Shown here in pieces: positions 42,640 to 55,546 of a stretch of DNA of 64,000 nt. Source of the stretch: Bacillus sp. (in: firmicutes). Its GTDB lineage: Bacteria; Bacillota; Bacilli; Bacillales; Cytobacillaceae. The stretch lies in NCBI GenBank assembly GCA_039832695.1, contig JBDOMM010000038.1:265-64264 (forward strand), in the 5' to 3' direction. The translations under genes were made by a program, and so were the position numbers. Each line of letters opens with the position of its first letter. The first letter of the stretch is position 1. Under the pieces are notes generated by a model that was not told where the DNA came from, ran no database searches, and was given only the letters and a program-made list of their open reading frames with translations.

Positions 42640-43422
42640 ATGGAAAAATCTAAATGGAGCAAAATGGGAATCCCATACTTACATTTTGGAAGTGGAGAAC
42701 CATTGGTACTTATCCATGGGTTAGGTGAAGTGAAAGAAGGATGGAAAAATCAATTCGAATTAGCTGATCAATTTGAGTTAATTATTCCCGATTTGAGAGG
42801 TCATGGTGAGTGTTCAAAAATAGATGGTATTACGATTCACAACTTTGCTTCTGACATTATTGGACTATTAAAAGAGTTAGAAATTGAAAACGCTCACATA
42901 CTCGGTTACTCTATGGGTGGAGCCGTTGCACAAGAAATTTACCGCCAAGTCCCCAACCTCTGCCGTTCTCTCTTGTTGGTTAGCACCTTTCACTATTTCC
43001 CAAAAAAGCTAAAAAGACTATTATATAACAATCGAAAGGCTAAGTTTGAAGCTGTTACAGCTGCTGGTAAACAAACCGATTTTATTTCAAAAATGGCTCT
43101 ATACTCATGGAATAAAGAAACGAAAGAAATATTTAGCCACTCATTTCACCCAAAACATCACATATTTCTACAATCCTTGAACACATGTCTGGATGTAAAT
43201 AATTTGTCCTTACTGCCAAAAATAAACATTCCAACGTTAATCATAGGTGGCCAGTACGACTCTGTATTACCTGTTTGGATTCAAGCATGCATGCACAAGT
43301 TAATTCTGCCTTCCGAATTTATTATCATGAGAAATACTGGGCATATTGCCAAGTTAGAAGCCAAAGACAGATTTAACTACTTGCTCCGCAAGTTCCTAAT
43401 TCAGCAAAAGTCAGTTGCATAA
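42640..43422 (+). CDS. Alpha/beta hydrolase, candidate intracellular PHA depolymerase/esterase
   Basis: HGLG oxyanion motif, DLRGHG, GYSMGG nucleophile, YD and TGH triad residues. Confidence 0.75.
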   Translation: MEKSKWSKMGIPYLHFGSGEPLVLIHGLGEVKEGWKNQFELADQFELIIPDLRGHGECSKIDGITIHNFASDIIGLLKELEIENAHILGYSMGGAVAQEIYRQVPNLCRSLLLVSTFHYFPKKLKRLLYNNRKAKFEAVTAAGKQTDFISKMALYSWNKETKEIFSHSFHPKHHIFLQSLNTCLDVNNLSLLPKINIPTLIIGGQYDSVLPVWIQACMHKLILPSEFIIMRNTGHIAKLEAKDRFNYLLRKFLIQQKSVA

Positions 43423-43461
43423 AAAACGGGAAGGGTAATGTCCTTCCCGTTTTTTATGCAT

Positions 43462-44520
43462 TTAGTGTGAATGAGATGAAAGCCATTGGTCAGCAAATTT
43501 GGCAAACATTCCTGTTAAAGCAAGGGAAACATGTCCGCCTTCAAATACCTGATATGTTTTATCTTCACTTGATATCATATTCATAATTGGCACACTTTGC
43601 TGTTCTAATACTAGAGTATCTCTAGATGTCGAAAAAACAAAAGTCGGGCACTCAATATTTTTTAAATCTACTTTTCTGCCACCGATTTCTAATTCACCTT
43701 TTAGTAGTTTATTATCTTTGTAGAAATCATTAAATAACTGTTTAAAGGCTGCACCTGCAAACGAAGCTGTATCCTTTGTCCATTTATCCATCCTGCGCCA
43801 TTTTTCTACATACTCAGGATCGTGGGCCCGGGTTATTAGGTTAACCCAAGGACTGATATAAACGGGCGAAAGCCCTCTAAACATGAGGTACATATATTCC
43901 GATGGAATTACCCCATACACATCAGAAAACCGGTTAAAGTCCATCGCACCCTTTTGTAATCCTTTTAACCACTTATGTGGAACAATCCCAACACTAAAAT
44001 CAATCGGAACGGTTGCAAGAACTAGATTTCTGATTGGTAGTTTCGTAATAGAGGTAAAAATGGCTGAAATGGTTCCTCCTAGGCAATAACCAACCATCGA
44101 AATACCCTTTGCTCCTGAATGTCTAAGTGCCCGTTTTACAGCATTTTCTAAGTAATCAATGATATAATTATCAAGGGTTATATCACGATCTTCATATCCT
44201 GGTGAACCCCAGTCTAAAAAATAAACATCATAGCCTCGCCCTGTTAAACCACCCACAACACTGCTACCCTCACCAATGTCTAAAATATATGATTTATTAA
44301 GCAGTGAATAGACTAAGAATATAGGAATTTCATATCTTTTATCTTTAGCAGGATGATAATATAAGGTGGATTTATTCTTTTTCCAAATTATTTCTCTTGG
44401 TGTTGGAGTAATATCTGGTTTAGGCTCTGTAAGAACCTTATATACTTGATTCCATCTTGCAGTTTCTTTTTCTATATCAAGCTGGGGAATAAAATTAGGA
44501 CCCAGTGCTTTTATACTCAT
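43462..44520 (-). CDS. phaC: Class III/IV-type PHA synthase catalytic subunit
   Basis: TPREIIW, YSLLNKSYILD, LDWG, GYCLGG catalytic Cys, RD and GGH triad. Confidence 0.88.
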   Translation of the reverse strand: MSIKALGPNFIPQLDIEKETARWNQVYKVLTEPKPDITPTPREIIWKKNKSTLYYHPAKDKRYEIPIFLVYSLLNKSYILDIGEGSSVVGGLTGRGYDVYFLDWGSPGYEDRDITLDNYIIDYLENAVKRALRHSGAKGISMVGYCLGGTISAIFTSITKLPIRNLVLATVPIDFSVGIVPHKWLKGLQKGAMDFNRFSDVYGVIPSEYMYLMFRGLSPVYISPWVNLITRAHDPEYVEKWRRMDKWTKDTASFAGAAFKQLFNDFYKDNKLLKGELEIGGRKVDLKNIECPTFVFSTSRDTLVLEQQSVPIMNMISSEDKTYQVFEGGHVSLALTGMFAKFADQWLSSHSH

Positions 44521-45038: not shown

Positions 45039-45686
45039 CTATGATTGAAGTTCTTCGGTTTTTTCTAAATATTTATTAATTGGGAACATAACCGTTTTTA
45101 TTTGTCTCGCAAAAAGGTTGACAAAGCCCCTCTGGCTTTCATAAATTAAATTCCCAGCTTGTTTAACAGTATGAATATATTGCACCCTGCCTTTTTTCCT
45201 CAATGAGATGTATTGGTCGATCATTTCTATATATTTATCCATTGTTAAATAGCTATGAACCGTATGACACGGTGCACTAAGAATTGAGATTGTTTTCTTT
45301 TGGATTTTATCAATCTGAGCATTTATTTCCTCATAAGATCGAACCGGAGAAAAATGTTGAAGACTAGTCGTAGACATTAGGAATTCCTCTCGTGCCATTC
45401 TCTCCCATTCAGCAAATTCTTTATTAAATTTTTCTGTTATCTCCTTCACGTTTCCCTGATTTCTTTTTATACTCTCAGCGAATAACTTTGCTTCTTTTAA
45501 AAATACTTCATCGCGAAAATCAGCTCGTTTCGCCCATTCATCTAGTTCTCCAAAAGCATGCCGCCAAAGTATATCCAAACTAGAAAGCTGTTCTAGTTCG
45601 TCATGTTCTTCATGTATTTCTTCCTTCTGTTCCGTATTCTCATTGGTATCCTGTGATTCTGTTTCTTTATTTGGCAAATTAATCAC
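45039..45686 (-). CDS. Helical hypothetical protein, second phasin-like candidate
   Basis: Acidic N-terminus, SLDILW motif, amphipathic helices; upstream of phaR on the same strand. Confidence 0.55.
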   Translation of the reverse strand: MINLPNKETESQDTNENTEQKEEIHEEHDELEQLSSLDILWRHAFGELDEWAKRADFRDEVFLKEAKLFAESIKRNQGNVKEITEKFNKEFAEWERMAREEFLMSTTSLQHFSPVRSYEEINAQIDKIQKKTISILSAPCHTVHSYLTMDKYIEMIDQYISLRKKGRVQYIHTVKQAGNLIYESQRGFVNLFARQIKTVMFPINKYLEKTEELQS

Positions 45687-45788: not shown

Positions 45789-47420
45789 TTAAACATGTAG
45801 TTGTTCTTCATCTTTACGTAACATCCGTCTCAATAATTTACCTACGGATGATTTTGGCAGTTCATCAAGAATTTCGATCTCTTTTGGAACCTTATAGGGT
45901 GCTAAGTTAACCTTAGCAAATTCAATTAGTATTTCAGGCGTTACAAGAATGCCAGTCTTTAACTTAACAAAAGCCTTAACCGTTTCCCCTCTGTAACTGT
46001 CTGGTGCACCAATAACAATGGCTTCCTCAACTGCCTCGTGCTGGTAGAGCACTTCTTCGATTTCACGTGGATACACATTATAGCCGCTGGCAATGATAAT
46101 ATCTTTCTTACGATCCAAAATGTAAAAATACCCATCCTCATCCATTTTCGCAATGTCTCCAGTGAAGAGCCAACCATCTCTTAAGACCATTTCCGTATCA
46201 CCAGGCCGTTTCCAGTAGCCCTTCATTACCTGCGGTCCACGTAGGATTAATTCGCCCGCTTCCCCAATTGGGACATCTTCAATACCATGGGCAGTTTGTG
46301 TTACAATTCTAGCTTCAGTTCCTGGCAAAGGAATACCAACGCTTCCTAATTTTCTTGGTAAGAATGGTGGTGTAGAGATTGCCGATGGTGCCGTTTCTGA
46401 TAATCCATACCCGTCTGCCAATCTTACTCCAACTCTTTTCTCAAAGGACCTTACCTGCTCGACCGGAAGAGGTGCTCCTCCGCTGCTTAAATAATAGATA
46501 TCTCCTAAGTTGCTTGCCTCTAAATCAGGGTGACTATTAAAAGCGAAAATCATTGTTGGGACTGCTGTCAGTTGAAATGGTTTTTCCCTTTTAACCAGTT
46601 CTAATACTTCATTCACATCAAACCTAGGTAAAATCAGCTGATTACAGCCAATCCTAATGGCAGAAAGTGCATTACAAGAAAGTCCATACACGTGGAACAT
46701 CGGAAGTACACTCACAATTTTAAAATTTTCAGGCTTCTCTTCCACCGCATTGTAGGTAAAGTCACATACTTGAATAATATTTGCTAACAAGTTGTGATGG
46801 GTAAGCATAACCCCTTTAGATACTCCAGTTGTCCCACCGGTGTATTGTAAAATAGCGACATCCTCAGCTATATCAATCGGAATTTCAGGAATGACATTAT
46901 CATGTGTAAGAAAATCCTCAAAGTAAACATCCCCATCAGCAAGTTGAATTCTATTAGCACCAAAACCAACAACAATAATCCTCTTTAAAGAAGTCTTTGG
47001 TTGAACCCTCTTTACTCTAGAATAGAAATCTTCAAATACAACCATATACTCTGCCTCAGAATCATTTAACACATATTCTATTTCTCTTTCCACGTACATC
47101 GGATTGACTTGAACAGAAATAACACCTAGCCTAAACCCTGCAAAAAGACTAAATATATAATGAGGGCAGTTTGGCAGCATAATGGCGAGACGTTCTCCCT
47201 TTTTTAAACCAATCCGATATAAAGAGGCAGCAAACCATTCAGAGATCATTTTGGTTTCCTTATAGCTCCAAGATCTTCCATAAAAGGTAAGGGCCGGCCT
47301 TTCATTGTGAATATTGGCTGCCTGCTTTAAAAGATCAAATAATGAATCGTACTCAATCGAAACCGTTTCACTAATCCTTGGGTCGTAAAATTTTAACCAT
47401 GGTTTTTTTTGATATTCCAT
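45789..47420 (-). CDS. Long-chain-fatty-acid--CoA ligase (FadD/LcfA family)
   Basis: LQYTGGTTGVSKG, GYGLSE, GPQVMKGYW, FTGD, DRKKD, GKLLRR. Confidence 0.92.
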   Translation of the reverse strand: MEYQKKPWLKFYDPRISETVSIEYDSLFDLLKQAANIHNERPALTFYGRSWSYKETKMISEWFAASLYRIGLKKGERLAIMLPNCPHYIFSLFAGFRLGVISVQVNPMYVEREIEYVLNDSEAEYMVVFEDFYSRVKRVQPKTSLKRIIVVGFGANRIQLADGDVYFEDFLTHDNVIPEIPIDIAEDVAILQYTGGTTGVSKGVMLTHHNLLANIIQVCDFTYNAVEEKPENFKIVSVLPMFHVYGLSCNALSAIRIGCNQLILPRFDVNEVLELVKREKPFQLTAVPTMIFAFNSHPDLEASNLGDIYYLSSGGAPLPVEQVRSFEKRVGVRLADGYGLSETAPSAISTPPFLPRKLGSVGIPLPGTEARIVTQTAHGIEDVPIGEAGELILRGPQVMKGYWKRPGDTEMVLRDGWLFTGDIAKMDEDGYFYILDRKKDIIIASGYNVYPREIEEVLYQHEAVEEAIVIGAPDSYRGETVKAFVKLKTGILVTPEILIEFAKVNLAPYKVPKEIEILDELPKSSVGKLLRRMLRKDEEQLHV

Positions 47421-50066: not shown

Positions 50067-50150
50067 CTTCATTCCCTCCAAACACATTTACTCCTATTGG
50101 CTAAAATATATCATTTAGAAATTCCGAAAATTGTCGAATCATGCAAGAAA

Positions 50151-50170
50151 ACGAATGAGTACTCATTCAT
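50151..50170. promoter_or_regulatory. FadR(YsiA)-like TetR operator upstream of adhE
   Basis: ACGAATGAGTACTCATTCAT; perfect 16-bp palindrome GAATGAGTACTCATTC; close to the WTGAATGAMTANTCATTCAN consensus. Confidence 0.7.
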
Positions 50171-50257
50171 TTCATAGAATGTTCAAAAATTGGAGGAACT
50201 CTTTCCAAAATAAAAAGAGGCCGACTTAAATGAGTCAGCCTCCGATTCAGTTGGGTA

Positions 50258-53014
50258 TCAGCCAGTATTCCTTAATCCAGCAGATATACCACTTATAGTT
50301 AGAAGAACTTGTGTGAGCAATTCATCATTCTCTCCTTCTTGTTTCCTTAATTCTTTAATTAACTCAACTTGAAGGTGGTTTAATGGGTCAACATAAGGAT
50401 TACGTCTATGAACCGATTCTTGAATATTTGGAGTATGATCCAGCAATTCATTATCCCCTGTTATTTTCAATAAAATAGCTTTCGTTCTTTCATATTCTTC
50501 TAAAATATTCGTAAAAATTCTATCTGAGATTGCTTTATCTTGAACAAGAGTTAAATATTCCTTCGCAGTGGTAATATCAGCTTTCATTAACGCCATGTGT
50601 AAATTATCAATCGTTGATCGAAAAAATGGCCACTTCTCATACATTTGTTGTAAGAGCTGAAGATTTCCAGCACTTTTTGAAGCAAAAGTGTCTAGTCCAG
50701 TTCCAGCAGCATACCATGCAGGAAGCAATTGCCTGCTTTGTGTCCACGCAAACACCCATGGAATTGCCCTTAAATCCTCAAAACGACCTCGATTTTTTCT
50801 ACTCATTGGTCTTGAACCAATATTTAGGTCACCTAATTCCCTTAATGGTGTTGCTTCATTAAAGTATGTTAAGAAGTCTGGATCTCCAAATACTAATGAT
50901 TGATATTTCCCCAAAGAAATACCCGCAATTTCTTCAATGGTTTCTTCCCAAATAGGATCTCGGTGATATCCTGACTCTTTTGATACATGTGTTGCTGCAA
51001 GCAGTAAGGTAGATGTCGCCTGCTCTAGACTACGGTAAGCAATATCCTCAAGCAAATACCTTGACGATAATACTTCCCCCTGTTCGGTAATCTTTACACC
51101 ATCTCCAATTGTTTCAGCCGGTTGAGATAAGATGCTCTTATTTAATGGACCGCCGCCACGGCCAAGCGAACCACCGCGGCCGTGGAAGAATTTAAGGCCA
51201 ATATCATACTGCTTAGCCATTTTATGAATTTCAATTTGGGCTCTATACAGCTTCCAATTGGCAGTAAGTGTTCCACCATCTTTGCTACCATCAGAGTATC
51301 CTAGCATGATTTCCTGTTGGTCCCCTAAAATTTTCAAATGATTGCGGTACAATGGCATTTCAAAGAGAGTTTCCATAATCTTAGGACCCGCAACAAGGTC
51401 ATCAATTGTTTCCAGCAATGGAGCTACATTTAAATGACTTTCTAAAGTGCCGTCTGCGTGAAGTCGATAAATTCCTGCCTCTTTTGCAAGAACTAGAACT
51501 TCAAGCAAGTCACTTGGTGATTTAGTCATACTAACAAGGTAGACAGAAATGGATCGTTTCCCAAACACTTCATGTGCCTCTTTGATCATTTGGAATACTT
51601 TAATCATTTCTTGCGTTTCCGCAGAATAATCTTCATTCAAAAGTAGCACAGGGCGTGGATCCATTAAGATATTTTGTAAAATCTTTATTTTTTCTTCTTC
51701 AAGTAGTTCCGCATAGTTTTCAGTAATTCTTACTTTGCGAAGAATCTCTGTAATAGCCGCTTCGTGTTCCCCACTATGGTTACGAATATCCAATGTTGCT
51801 AAATGGAAGCCAAATAACTGAACTTGACGAATCAGCTTCTGAATAATTTTTAATTCATGCGCAGCAGGGTGATGCATCTTTAAACTTCTTTTAATAAGAT
51901 ATAAGTCTTCTAATAATTCCTCTGCAGATTTATATCCTAATTCTGAGGACCCTACATGCTTAACTCGTTCAATAATAAGTGCAAAGGCCCGACGATACAC
52001 TTCCGCTTTATTAGGCCATTTTTTCTCTTCTTTTAAGTAAATATCTTCTTTTTCTTCGATAAAAGTAAGTAATTCTTCACTAACCTCTACACGTGTAGTG
52101 GCCTGGCTGTATCTCTTCATTAGGTCGACTAATACATTCTTATACTTCTTTAGTACCAATCTTCTTTGTTTATTTAAGGTTTCCCATGTGACCTCGTGGG
52201 TAACATTCGGGTTGCCGTCACGGTCTCCGCCGATCCATGAACCGAAACGAAGGAAATTAGGAACTTCCCATGCAGCATGAGAATAATACTTACCTAAATT
52301 GTCGGCCACTTCCTGGTGTATCTCCGGAAGCACCTCAAAAAGTGTTTGATCAAAATAATACAATCCATTTCTTACTTCATCCAACACAGTTGGCTTATGC
52401 TGACGCAGTTCATCGGTTTGCCATAGAATCGTCACTTCATTAAACAAGCTTTCTTCAAGCTTTTTTCTTTCCCTGCTAGTTAACAAAGGATGATCTAGAC
52501 TTTTTAAGATGTCAGCGATTCGCTGTTGAATTTCAAGAATGGAGCGCTTAGTCGCCTCAGTTGGATGAGCCGTGATGACCAATTCTAAGGATAGCGTATG
52601 TAAAACTTTTTGAATCACATCTTCATTAATATCATTCTCTTTAAGAGAAAGAATCGCACTCTCAATGGATGCAGGCTGTACAATATTATCATCTTGAAGC
52701 TGATATTCCCTCCGTCTTCTGATGCGATGGTTTTGTTCAGCTGCGTTTATCAAATGGAAATACATAGAAAAAGCACGGATAATTTGTCTTCTCATCGGAG
52801 AGCTTAGATTAGCGATTTCTTCTTTTAAATTAGTATAAATTTCTTGATCAAAGTGAGTTCTTAAAGTCTTTGACATCAATCTAATTTTCTCTACTTTTTC
52901 GAATAATTCAGATCCACCATGATTGACAAGAATTTCACCAAGCATTTTTCCAAGTAATTTCACATCACGACGCAACGGAAGACTGCTGTCATTTACTTTT
53001 AATTCTGTTGCCAT
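50258..53014 (-). CDS. ppc: Phosphoenolpyruvate carboxylase
   Basis: VITAHPTE, SWIGGDRDGNP, MLGYSDGSKDGG, FHGRGGSLGRGG, LRAIPWVFAWTQ, GLRNTG. Confidence 0.97.
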   Translation of the reverse strand: MATELKVNDSSLPLRRDVKLLGKMLGEILVNHGGSELFEKVEKIRLMSKTLRTHFDQEIYTNLKEEIANLSSPMRRQIIRAFSMYFHLINAAEQNHRIRRRREYQLQDDNIVQPASIESAILSLKENDINEDVIQKVLHTLSLELVITAHPTEATKRSILEIQQRIADILKSLDHPLLTSRERKKLEESLFNEVTILWQTDELRQHKPTVLDEVRNGLYYFDQTLFEVLPEIHQEVADNLGKYYSHAAWEVPNFLRFGSWIGGDRDGNPNVTHEVTWETLNKQRRLVLKKYKNVLVDLMKRYSQATTRVEVSEELLTFIEEKEDIYLKEEKKWPNKAEVYRRAFALIIERVKHVGSSELGYKSAEELLEDLYLIKRSLKMHHPAAHELKIIQKLIRQVQLFGFHLATLDIRNHSGEHEAAITEILRKVRITENYAELLEEEKIKILQNILMDPRPVLLLNEDYSAETQEMIKVFQMIKEAHEVFGKRSISVYLVSMTKSPSDLLEVLVLAKEAGIYRLHADGTLESHLNVAPLLETIDDLVAGPKIMETLFEMPLYRNHLKILGDQQEIMLGYSDGSKDGGTLTANWKLYRAQIEIHKMAKQYDIGLKFFHGRGGSLGRGGGPLNKSILSQPAETIGDGVKITEQGEVLSSRYLLEDIAYRSLEQATSTLLLAATHVSKESGYHRDPIWEETIEEIAGISLGKYQSLVFGDPDFLTYFNEATPLRELGDLNIGSRPMSRKNRGRFEDLRAIPWVFAWTQSRQLLPAWYAAGTGLDTFASKSAGNLQLLQQMYEKWPFFRSTIDNLHMALMKADITTAKEYLTLVQDKAISDRIFTNILEEYERTKAILLKITGDNELLDHTPNIQESVHRRNPYVDPLNHLQVELIKELRKQEGENDELLTQVLLTISGISAGLRNTG

Positions 53015-53156
53015 ACCATTCACCTTCCCTTAGTCAAAAAATTCGCTAAATTTTTATATATAAATATAACATAAATTTACCCATCATGTGAAAGAAATAA
53101 CTTACTTTTTTAAAAAAAGAAAAAAAACTGCACCAAGCAGGCTTTGAAAATAGGAA

Positions 53157-54919: not shown

Positions 54920-55546
54920 CTAACTAATGGATGCAAGAAAAAAGTTGAGATGGTTCTCCATCTTATATTCTACTTCCCCTGTATCTTTGTTGTCGTACTT
55001 CAGGAGTAGATATTCTGTCATCATTGTAAATAACGGATACTGATACTCTATGGCCAAAATTCTTGCATTTTGCTGACTAAGCTTTCCTTCCTTGATGAAG
55101 TTCTGAAACGCCATTTCCAAGAACTCAATAGTTCCATTATATACATCATTCATAATAATCTCTCTAGCCCTTTGGTCACGAAATTGCTCAATATTTAGTA
55201 TTCTCCACATTTTTTCGTGCAACGGTTCTTCAACAGCCTGTTTAAAATGAATGATCCCCTGGGTTAAAAATTGGTTGATTGTCACACTTTTACTAATAGC
55301 CTCTAGGGTAAGCAAATTAGGCCTTGTTTTGGAATGGTGTTCACGAAATAACGCATAAATCCATTCTAAAATTTCATCCTTTGACTTAAAGTGATTATAT
55401 AAAGCACTTTCTTTTATCCCAACGACTTTGGTAAGCTCCCGAACGGATACGGCAGAAAAACCTTTATGAGAAAATAGTTCAATTGAAGCCACAAGGATTT
55501 TATATTTTGTACTGTTTACATCAAGGTCTGTTACTGGATGATTCAT
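54920..55546 (-). CDS. TetR/AcrR-family regulator
   Basis: ELFSHKGFSAVSVREL..VGIKESALYNHFKSKDEIL. Confidence 0.93.
   Translation of the reverse strand: MNHPVTDLDVNSTKYKILVASIELFSHKGFSAVSVRELTKVVGIKESALYNHFKSKDEILEWIYALFREHHSKTRPNLLTLEAISKSVTINQFLTQGIIHFKQAVEEPLHEKMWRILNIEQFRDQRAREIIMNDVYNGTIEFLEMAFQNFIKEGKLSQQNARILAIEYQYPLFTMMTEYLLLKYDNKDTGEVEYKMENHLNFFLASIS

Follow-up and report, generated by a model that had tools for sequence, protein, structure and literature searches.

In this study we analysed a stretch of 64,000 nucleotides from a Bacillus sp. genome (the window) and describe a palindrome that is strongly supported in silico as an operator of the fatty-acid regulator FadR on an adhE gene without Rex control. 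The gene is normally induced by a lack of oxygen, and here it probably responds to fatty acids; the PHA synthase genes that follow it perhaps respond to them as well. We consider it likely that FadR of the YsiA type holds the adhE promoter and that acyl-CoA releases it. As long as long-chain acyl-CoA is lacking, a dimer of FadR dimers would sit on the 20-21-bp site and the adhE promoter just downstream would be held down. After uptake and activation of fatty acids, acyl-CoA would release FadR and adhE would be transcribed, followed by the tightly coupled gene for an acyl-CoA ligase and, probably by read-through, by orf215-phaR-phaC. We propose that these genes serve fatty-acid catabolism as a module for redox or carbon overflow. 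FadR binding, its inducer, the direction in which expression changes, how far the operon extends and what the genes do in the cell are all inferred from comparisons of DNA and protein sequences.

The palindrome GAATGAGTACTCATTC is perfect over 16 bp, occurs once in the window and has no second perfect copy in the whole assembly (4.97 Mb, 55 contigs). It lies in the intergenic region between the ppc terminator and adhE, both genes being encoded on the minus strand, and forms the core of the 20-bp frame ACGAATGAGTACTCATTCAT (Table 1). This frame agrees with the consensus that PMC5397183 quotes for the B. subtilis FadR box, WTGAATGAMTANTCATTCAN, at 18 of 20 positions on either strand, and it differs at two positions from the operator that was crystallised with B. 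halodurans FadR. Dinucleotide shuffles of the window give an expectation of 0.02 matches per window for the 19-mer consensus with up to two mismatches, and for the exact 16-mer with up to three mismatches the expectation is 0.28 per window. The program-made adhE reading frame begins at 50087; we place the start at ATG 50066 (MSVEE...), as indicated by the ribosome binding site GGAGGG at 50079-50074 and by the N-termini of 30 orthologues (MSVEE/MAVEE), which puts the box 86 nt from the start codon. A first-pass annotation of this DNA had delimited the palindrome to exactly the 20-bp frame, about 85 bp upstream of adhE and within two mismatches of the B. subtilis FadR box, and our analysis agrees with it on each of these points.

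Table 1. Predicted features of the adhE-PHA locus, in window positions, and FadR-box sites found elsewhere in the genome.
Feature	Position	Strand	Basis or remarks
Strong terminator after phaC	43416-43460		
PhaC, class III/IV-type PHA synthase	43462-44517	-	TIGR01836 294.7 bits, below cut-off 365.3; PhaC_N and alpha/beta-hydrolase; GYCLGG box
PhaR-like PHA synthase subunit, 158 aa	44542-45018	-	TIGR02132 40.3 bits, below cut-off 148.4
orf215, helical	45039-45686	-	no family match; 45% identical to PhaP_Bmeg-like protein of second PHA module
Acyl-CoA ligase, AMP-binding, 543 aa, accessory	45789-47420	-	42 nt after adhE
adhE, bifunctional acetaldehyde-CoA/alcohol dehydrogenase, 867 aa	47463-50066	-	NF010378; Pfam Aldedh and Fe-ADH; alignment to 7DAG and 6AHC
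Predicted core promoter, extended -10 TGaTATATT and invariant TTAGCCA, block TGATATATTTTAGCCA	50098-50113	-	invariant in 30 orthologues
Candidate tandem Spo0A-box-like repeats TTCGACA-ATT-TTCGGAA	50122-50138	-	motif match and conservation
Predicted FadR (TetR-type, YsiA) operator	50151-50170 (core 50153-50168)	.	consensus and crystal-operator match (2 mismatches to B. halodurans core); half-site conservation
Conserved element TTGAAC-N5-(A/G)TGAA, upstream of FadR box	50171-50186	-	upstream alignment
ppc intrinsic terminator	50216-50243	-	terminator also at same place in orthologues
ppc (PEP carboxylase)	50258-53023	-	
FadR-box site, lcfB-like acyl-CoA ligase and enoyl-CoA hydratase			0 mismatches to B. 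halodurans core
FadR-box site, spacer between MBL-fold gene and gerXA	C51:107845-107864		0 mismatches to B. halodurans core
FadR-box site, fadN-fadA			1 mismatch to B. halodurans core
FadR-box site, between lcfA and fadR-fadB-etfBA			2 mismatches to B. halodurans core

The regulator that would recognise this box is present in the genome. A single FadR orthologue exceeds the threshold of NF053878, the model for Bacillus FadR (C43:394760-395320, 316 bits against 200), and it is found in the gene order lcfA-fadR-fadB(ECH)-etfB. The protein aligns over its full length to B. subtilis FadR (1VI0, 3WHB) and to B. halodurans FadR (5GP9, 5GPC), and its helix-turn-helix stretch differs from that of the B. 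subtilis protein in one residue. As an independent probe for a genome scan we used the operator co-crystallised with B. halodurans FadR, GATGAATGAATACTCATTCAT, of which the 20-mer core was taken. Five sites with up to two mismatches to this core exist in the 4.97-Mb genome, the adhE box being one of them (Table 1), and the next site, at fadF, has three. The presence of the same box at the fad operons of the genome indicates that the adhE box is the box of the organism's own fad regulon. One of the sites with a core identical to that of B. halodurans lies between a gene for an MBL-fold hydrolase and a gerXA-like germination operon, and marks a possible further regulon member outside the fad genes. 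PhaJ-like MaoC genes are also present in the genome, and no FadR box was seen near them in the mismatch scans.

The system resembles that of B. subtilis in its 20-bp pseudo-palindrome, in its TetR-type regulator with a conserved helix-turn-helix, in the boxes at fad operons and in its expected inducer, long-chain acyl-CoA. The B. subtilis FadR regulon comprises five fad (beta-oxidation) operons (review PMC4525379), whereas the target described here is an adhE gene heading a PHA synthase locus, which is absent from these five. In the open-access literature that we searched, we found no paper that links FadR to adhE or to pha genes and nothing relevant on a comparative FadR regulon in Bacillales. 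As far as this literature shows, adhE is a new target of a known type of operator and regulator.

The box is conserved across the genus Neobacillus. We compared AdhE orthologues from 30 other genomes of the genus (79-97% identity) and found TGAATG-N6-CATTC(A/G) upstream of adhE in all 30, at 100-175 nt before the start codon. In the alignment of these upstream regions the half-sites TGAATG...TCATTC are invariant, while the centre of the box, its flanks and the terminator sequence vary. The length of the 5' UTR differs by up to about 80 nt among the orthologues, and the box stands at a constant distance from the promoter block. Box and gene order recur in 21 of 21 named Neobacillus loci, fetched via orf215, which include N. 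rhizosphaerae, novalis, vireti, drentensis, niacini, bataviensis and cucumis. In this order ppc is followed by the box and adhE, the ligase gene where present, orf215, phaR and phaC, and then by a convergent alpha/beta-hydrolase gene and phaQ-like-phaP. An intact ligase gene is missing in 8 of the 21 loci, seven of which have none and one of which (L064) keeps a remnant of about 43 residues. The assignment of the palindrome as a FadR-type operator, already made in the first-pass annotation, therefore holds in silico on the strength of the consensus match, the cognate FadR, the box at fad operons and the conservation throughout the genus.

The window encodes a canonical, intact AdhE, which scores 1346 bits on the equivalog model NF010378 (cut-off 951), aligns over about 850 residues to the solved AdhE structures 7DAG and 6AHC, and conserves the ICASEQ cysteine motif in this alignment. 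It is the only adhE copy in this genome, for which marker genes indicate an assembly completeness of 99.98%; in many Neobacillus genomes there are two or three copies. Rex-controlled Firmicutes carry the same canonical AdhE. In S. aureus, adhE is controlled by the Rex operator TTGTGAA-W4-TTCACAA (PMC2883068), of which TGTGA-N6-TCACA is the core. Upstream of the adhE described here, we found no match to TTGTGAA-N4-TTCACAA with up to three mismatches, and the Rex/Fnr core is found in none of the 30 FadR-box orthologues, even with one mismatch. In contrast, all 16 copies of an adhE paralogue of 70% identity in the relatives have a perfect TGTGA-N6-TCACA, which lies 32-99 nt ahead of the start codon and in most cases at about 40 nt; this paralogue was not found in the present genome. 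In an order-wide sample of 121 genomes, 29 of them with adhE, the Rex-type core is found in 22 of 29 adhE loci outside the FadR group, in other Bacillales genera. The earlier observation that a Rex or Fnr box is typical of fermentative adhE genes and has no clear counterpart here is confirmed by these numbers. For this adhE, acyl-CoA appears to have replaced NADH/NAD+ as the control input. A role linked to lipids and not to fermentation had also been suggested for the gene; only the pattern of regulation speaks for it, the enzyme itself being a canonical AdhE.

The lone FadR-box exception in the order-wide sample is a genome from another family (G040). One of its adhE genes has the FadR box 41 nt ahead of the start codon, on the downstream side of the -10 element TGATATAGT, and a second adhE of the same genome has two Rex-type boxes. 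In a maximum-likelihood tree of 60 AdhE sequences, the FadR-box AdhEs fall into one clade (SH-aLRT 100, stem 0.23), which contains the Neobacillus FadR-box AdhEs, the FadR-box AdhE of G040 and a third Neobacillus paralogue with 67% identity and no box. In the midpoint-rooted tree, the sister group of this clade is formed by the Neobacillus AdhEs with a Rex box. The placement of G040 has to be read with care, since the rooting is by midpoint only and the G040 branch is long. To us the switch from Rex to FadR between paralogues is the most interesting aspect of the locus, and with its Rex-box and FadR-box adhE genes nature supplies a clean case of regulatory subfunctionalisation among paralogues.

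The position of the box relative to the promoter is unusual. With the adhE transcript predicted to start near 50098, the FadR box would be centred at about -62. It lies 13 nt upstream of TTCGACA, the first of two tandem Spo0A-like repeats. Within the same genome, the fadF box is placed between -35 and -10, the fadR box follows the -10 directly, and the boxes of fadN and of the lcfB-like gene are in the leader. In contrast to these fad promoters, the adhE box is predicted to lie upstream of the -35 region and not over the promoter or the transcript start, a position that is atypical for simple occlusion. FadR would therefore most likely not act by covering the -10 element or the start site. Because the box adjoins the tandem Spo0A-like boxes and the extended -10 from the upstream side, it most likely blocks an activator or the alpha subunit of RNA polymerase. 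Given the difference from the fad promoters, the mode of action may be either classical repression or interference with an activator. The ppc terminator insulates the adhE promoter from upstream transcription.

The first repeat, TTCGACA at 50138-50132, is the reverse complement of a perfect 0A core, and the second, at 50128-50122, matches it in 5 of 7 positions at a spacing of 3 bp. Of the 30 orthologues, 27 keep TTCGACA, and they do so with a fixed spacing; TTCGnnA follows three bases on, and the gap from TCGACA to TATATT is 21 nt. Both the tandem 0A-like boxes 3 bp apart and the long gap to the -10 are reminiscent of spoIIG-type Spo0A promoters, in which 0A boxes lie over the -35 region and the spoIIG spacer is 22 bp, although here the resemblance is one of motif and conservation. 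The Spo0A 0A-box core is TGTCGAA, and Spo0A dimers bind boxes that are 3 bp apart (PMC3485338, PMC2731898).

Beyond the FadR box, on its upstream side, lies a conserved element, TTGAAC-N5-(A/G)TGAA, which is shared with the promoters of the 67%-identity paralogue and with G040. A 10-bp deletion, or one helical turn, separates this genome and two others (G036, G020) from the rest between the TTGAAC element and the box. The loss of exactly 10 bp keeps the helical phase, which argues against TTGAAC as a -35 hexamer. The 67%-identity paralogue (L089-L092; G010, G032, G020, G002) has the promoter frame GAACATTCTnTGAA ... TTCTACA-N3-TTCT ... TGATATATT, and neither a FadR box nor a Rex box was found in its promoters in G010, G032, G020 and G002. 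A shared frame without the FadR box suggests that the frame works without FadR, which counts against FadR control of the adhE described here. At the position of the FadR box, the paralogue of G032 has another perfect palindrome, ATGCAGAAATTCTGCAT.

Other readings of the promoter region were considered and set aside. Matches of the conserved flanking elements to cre (CcpA) and CodY sites have four mismatches each by eye and are not conserved in the orthologues. A ResD-like reading of TTTGTGAA upstream of the box is a loose match only, and this genome has ATGAA there together with the 10-bp deletion. TCGACA as an ordinary -35 would have a spacer of 21 nt to TATATT, which is too long. An alternative TCGACA-16-AATGAT promoter from a promoter scan is possible, but ignores the invariant TGATATATT.

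The genes downstream of adhE form a PHA synthase locus of unusual composition. PhaC and PhaR are divergent members of their families, and orf215, which occurs only in Neobacillus PHA loci, probably encodes a PHA-granule protein. The gaps are short within the distal part of the locus, with 20 nt between orf215 and phaR and about 24 nt between phaR and phaC (9 nt if phaC starts at GTG 44532). Beyond phaC, the locus contains a phasin gene of the PhaP_Bmeg type and a PadR-type phaQ-like gene. Its PhaR-like, PhaC, PhaP_Bmeg and PhaQ-like components are shared with the class IV PHA loci of Bacillus and Priestia (phaP-phaQ / phaR-phaB-phaC). Unlike these, it has no phaB, has adhE, an optional acyl-CoA ligase gene and orf215 ahead of phaR-phaC, and encodes a PhaC and a PhaR that score below the NCBIfam cut-offs. 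A further difference is a second, paralogous PHA module in the same genome (C29:3000-14000), which carries an SDR instead of adhE. It has the order ligase-SDR-orf161-orf215-like-orf188-PhaC with a convergent alpha/beta-hydrolase gene, and the two modules are 64% identical in the ligase, 45% in the orf215-like protein and 56% in PhaC. adhE thus occupies the slot that the SDR reductase holds in the second module, upstream of which the mismatch scans found no FadR box. In two Neobacillus loci (L061, L063) there is an extra alpha/beta-hydrolase gene after adhE, remnants of which seem to form the spacer between the ligase gene and orf215 elsewhere.

What binds the palindrome, and what primarily drives the promoter, can be explained in other ways. 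Short AT-rich palindromes are common in intergenic DNA, and the expectation for the 16-mer at up to three mismatches reaches 0.28 per window, so that a chance palindrome without regulatory function might be suspected. The much lower expectation for the 19-mer consensus speaks against this, and half-sites that stay invariant in about 50 orthologous loci while the neighbouring bases and the 5' UTR diverge practically refute it. A different regulator with similar specificity, from the TetR family or unrelated to it, is also very improbable as the binding protein. The genome has about 19 TetR-like genes, one of them only 5 kb from the box at 54920-55546, but that protein reaches 24 bits on the FadR model and hence is not FadR, and its gene is part of a separate MBL-CPBP-TetR-SRPBCC module. 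Canonical fad operons, that of fadR among them, carry this 20-mer as well, only one TetR protein exceeds the FadR model cut-off, and that FadR has nearly the same helix-turn-helix as the proteins from whose operators the consensus is drawn. A weightier question is whether the promoter depends primarily on Spo0A~P, in the transition phase or at the onset of sporulation, with FadR modulating it or even helping to activate it and fatty acids alone not inducing. We regard this as possible, although well short of an even chance. It would fit the conserved tandem TTCGACA-N3-TTCGnnA at 21 nt from the extended -10, as well as a FadR box that lies upstream of the 0A-like boxes, where activators or anti-activators are more usually found. 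In B. thuringiensis, moreover, neither PHB accumulation nor the expression of pha genes can do without Spo0A, according to the citation of Chen 2010 in PMC7236355; this requirement and the tandem boxes led us to propose a Spo0A~P-dependent promoter with which FadR interferes. However, TTCGACA-N3-TTCG tandems are barely above chance in the genome (5 against an estimated expectation of about 2), the two other tandems whose gene context was examined (C14, C20) are at no known Spo0A targets, and nothing clearly equivalent to the adhE arrangement is seen at this genome's spoIIGA promoter. The review PMC4525379 also describes Bacillus FadR as a repressor only.

The extent of the operon is the other point on which readings divide. 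That the box controls adhE and the ligase gene, which are 42 nt apart, is well supported, and that it controls phaRC is plausible. The first-pass annotation had placed the PHA synthase under the same control. In favour of this, adhE to phaC form a co-directional block in which no terminator is predicted in this genome, and the order from adhE to phaR-phaC is kept in all of the named loci. Against it, the AT-rich gap of 102 nt between the ligase gene and orf215 contains a TATAAT-like element, and in several Neobacillus species (L059-L063, L066, L070, L072) adhE is directly followed by a CAGTCCC...GGGACTG hairpin, while the next gene is preceded by a conserved ATCGAA..TGTGAACA element. The gap and the hairpin of the relatives suggest that the PHA genes may have a promoter of their own. 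FadR would then control only adhE and the ligase gene, and the PHA synthase would be outside fatty-acid control, an arrangement that we think only a little less than evenly probable. It would also be in line with the FadR-box adhE of G040, which stands alone without PHA genes. The unbroken block and the conserved gene order lead us to prefer FadR control of adhE and the ligase gene with probable read-through into orf215-phaR-phaC.

If FadR control of adhE holds throughout the genus, a redox or solvent enzyme, and possibly polymer storage, would be added to the FadR regulon. This would tie fatty-acid catabolism to redox balance and to PHA formation in spore-formers, in a concrete way that can be tested. 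A wider and more speculative reading, which we consider rather unlikely, is that one AdhE lineage of the Bacillales was rewired from Rex to FadR and serves in lipid catabolism instead of sugar fermentation. The enzyme might then be an overflow valve for NADH and acetyl-CoA in beta-oxidation, or might interconvert acyl-CoA, aldehyde and alcohol and so feed or shape the polymer. In Neobacillus it would now head a PHA synthase operon, at the position that the SDR has in the paralogous module, with a promoter that computes 'fatty acids present AND Spo0A~P on'. Neobacillus niacini is reported to give its best PHA from waste cooking oil (PMC11314287), which agrees with PHA genes that respond to fatty acids but does not show such control. 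Should FadR control prove true, a native fatty-acid-responsive promoter would be on offer for PHA engineering.

A further observation concerns the fadR locus itself. Between its FadR box and the fadR start codon lies a GC-rich, structured intergenic repeat of about 150 bp (AAAATTCGACTTCGAGAATTGTC...GCGCTTxCGCTTTTCTT; C43, about 395380-395530). The same repeat is found again upstream of spoIIGA (L146, 1210-1350), and it has the appearance of a dispersed intergenic repeat.
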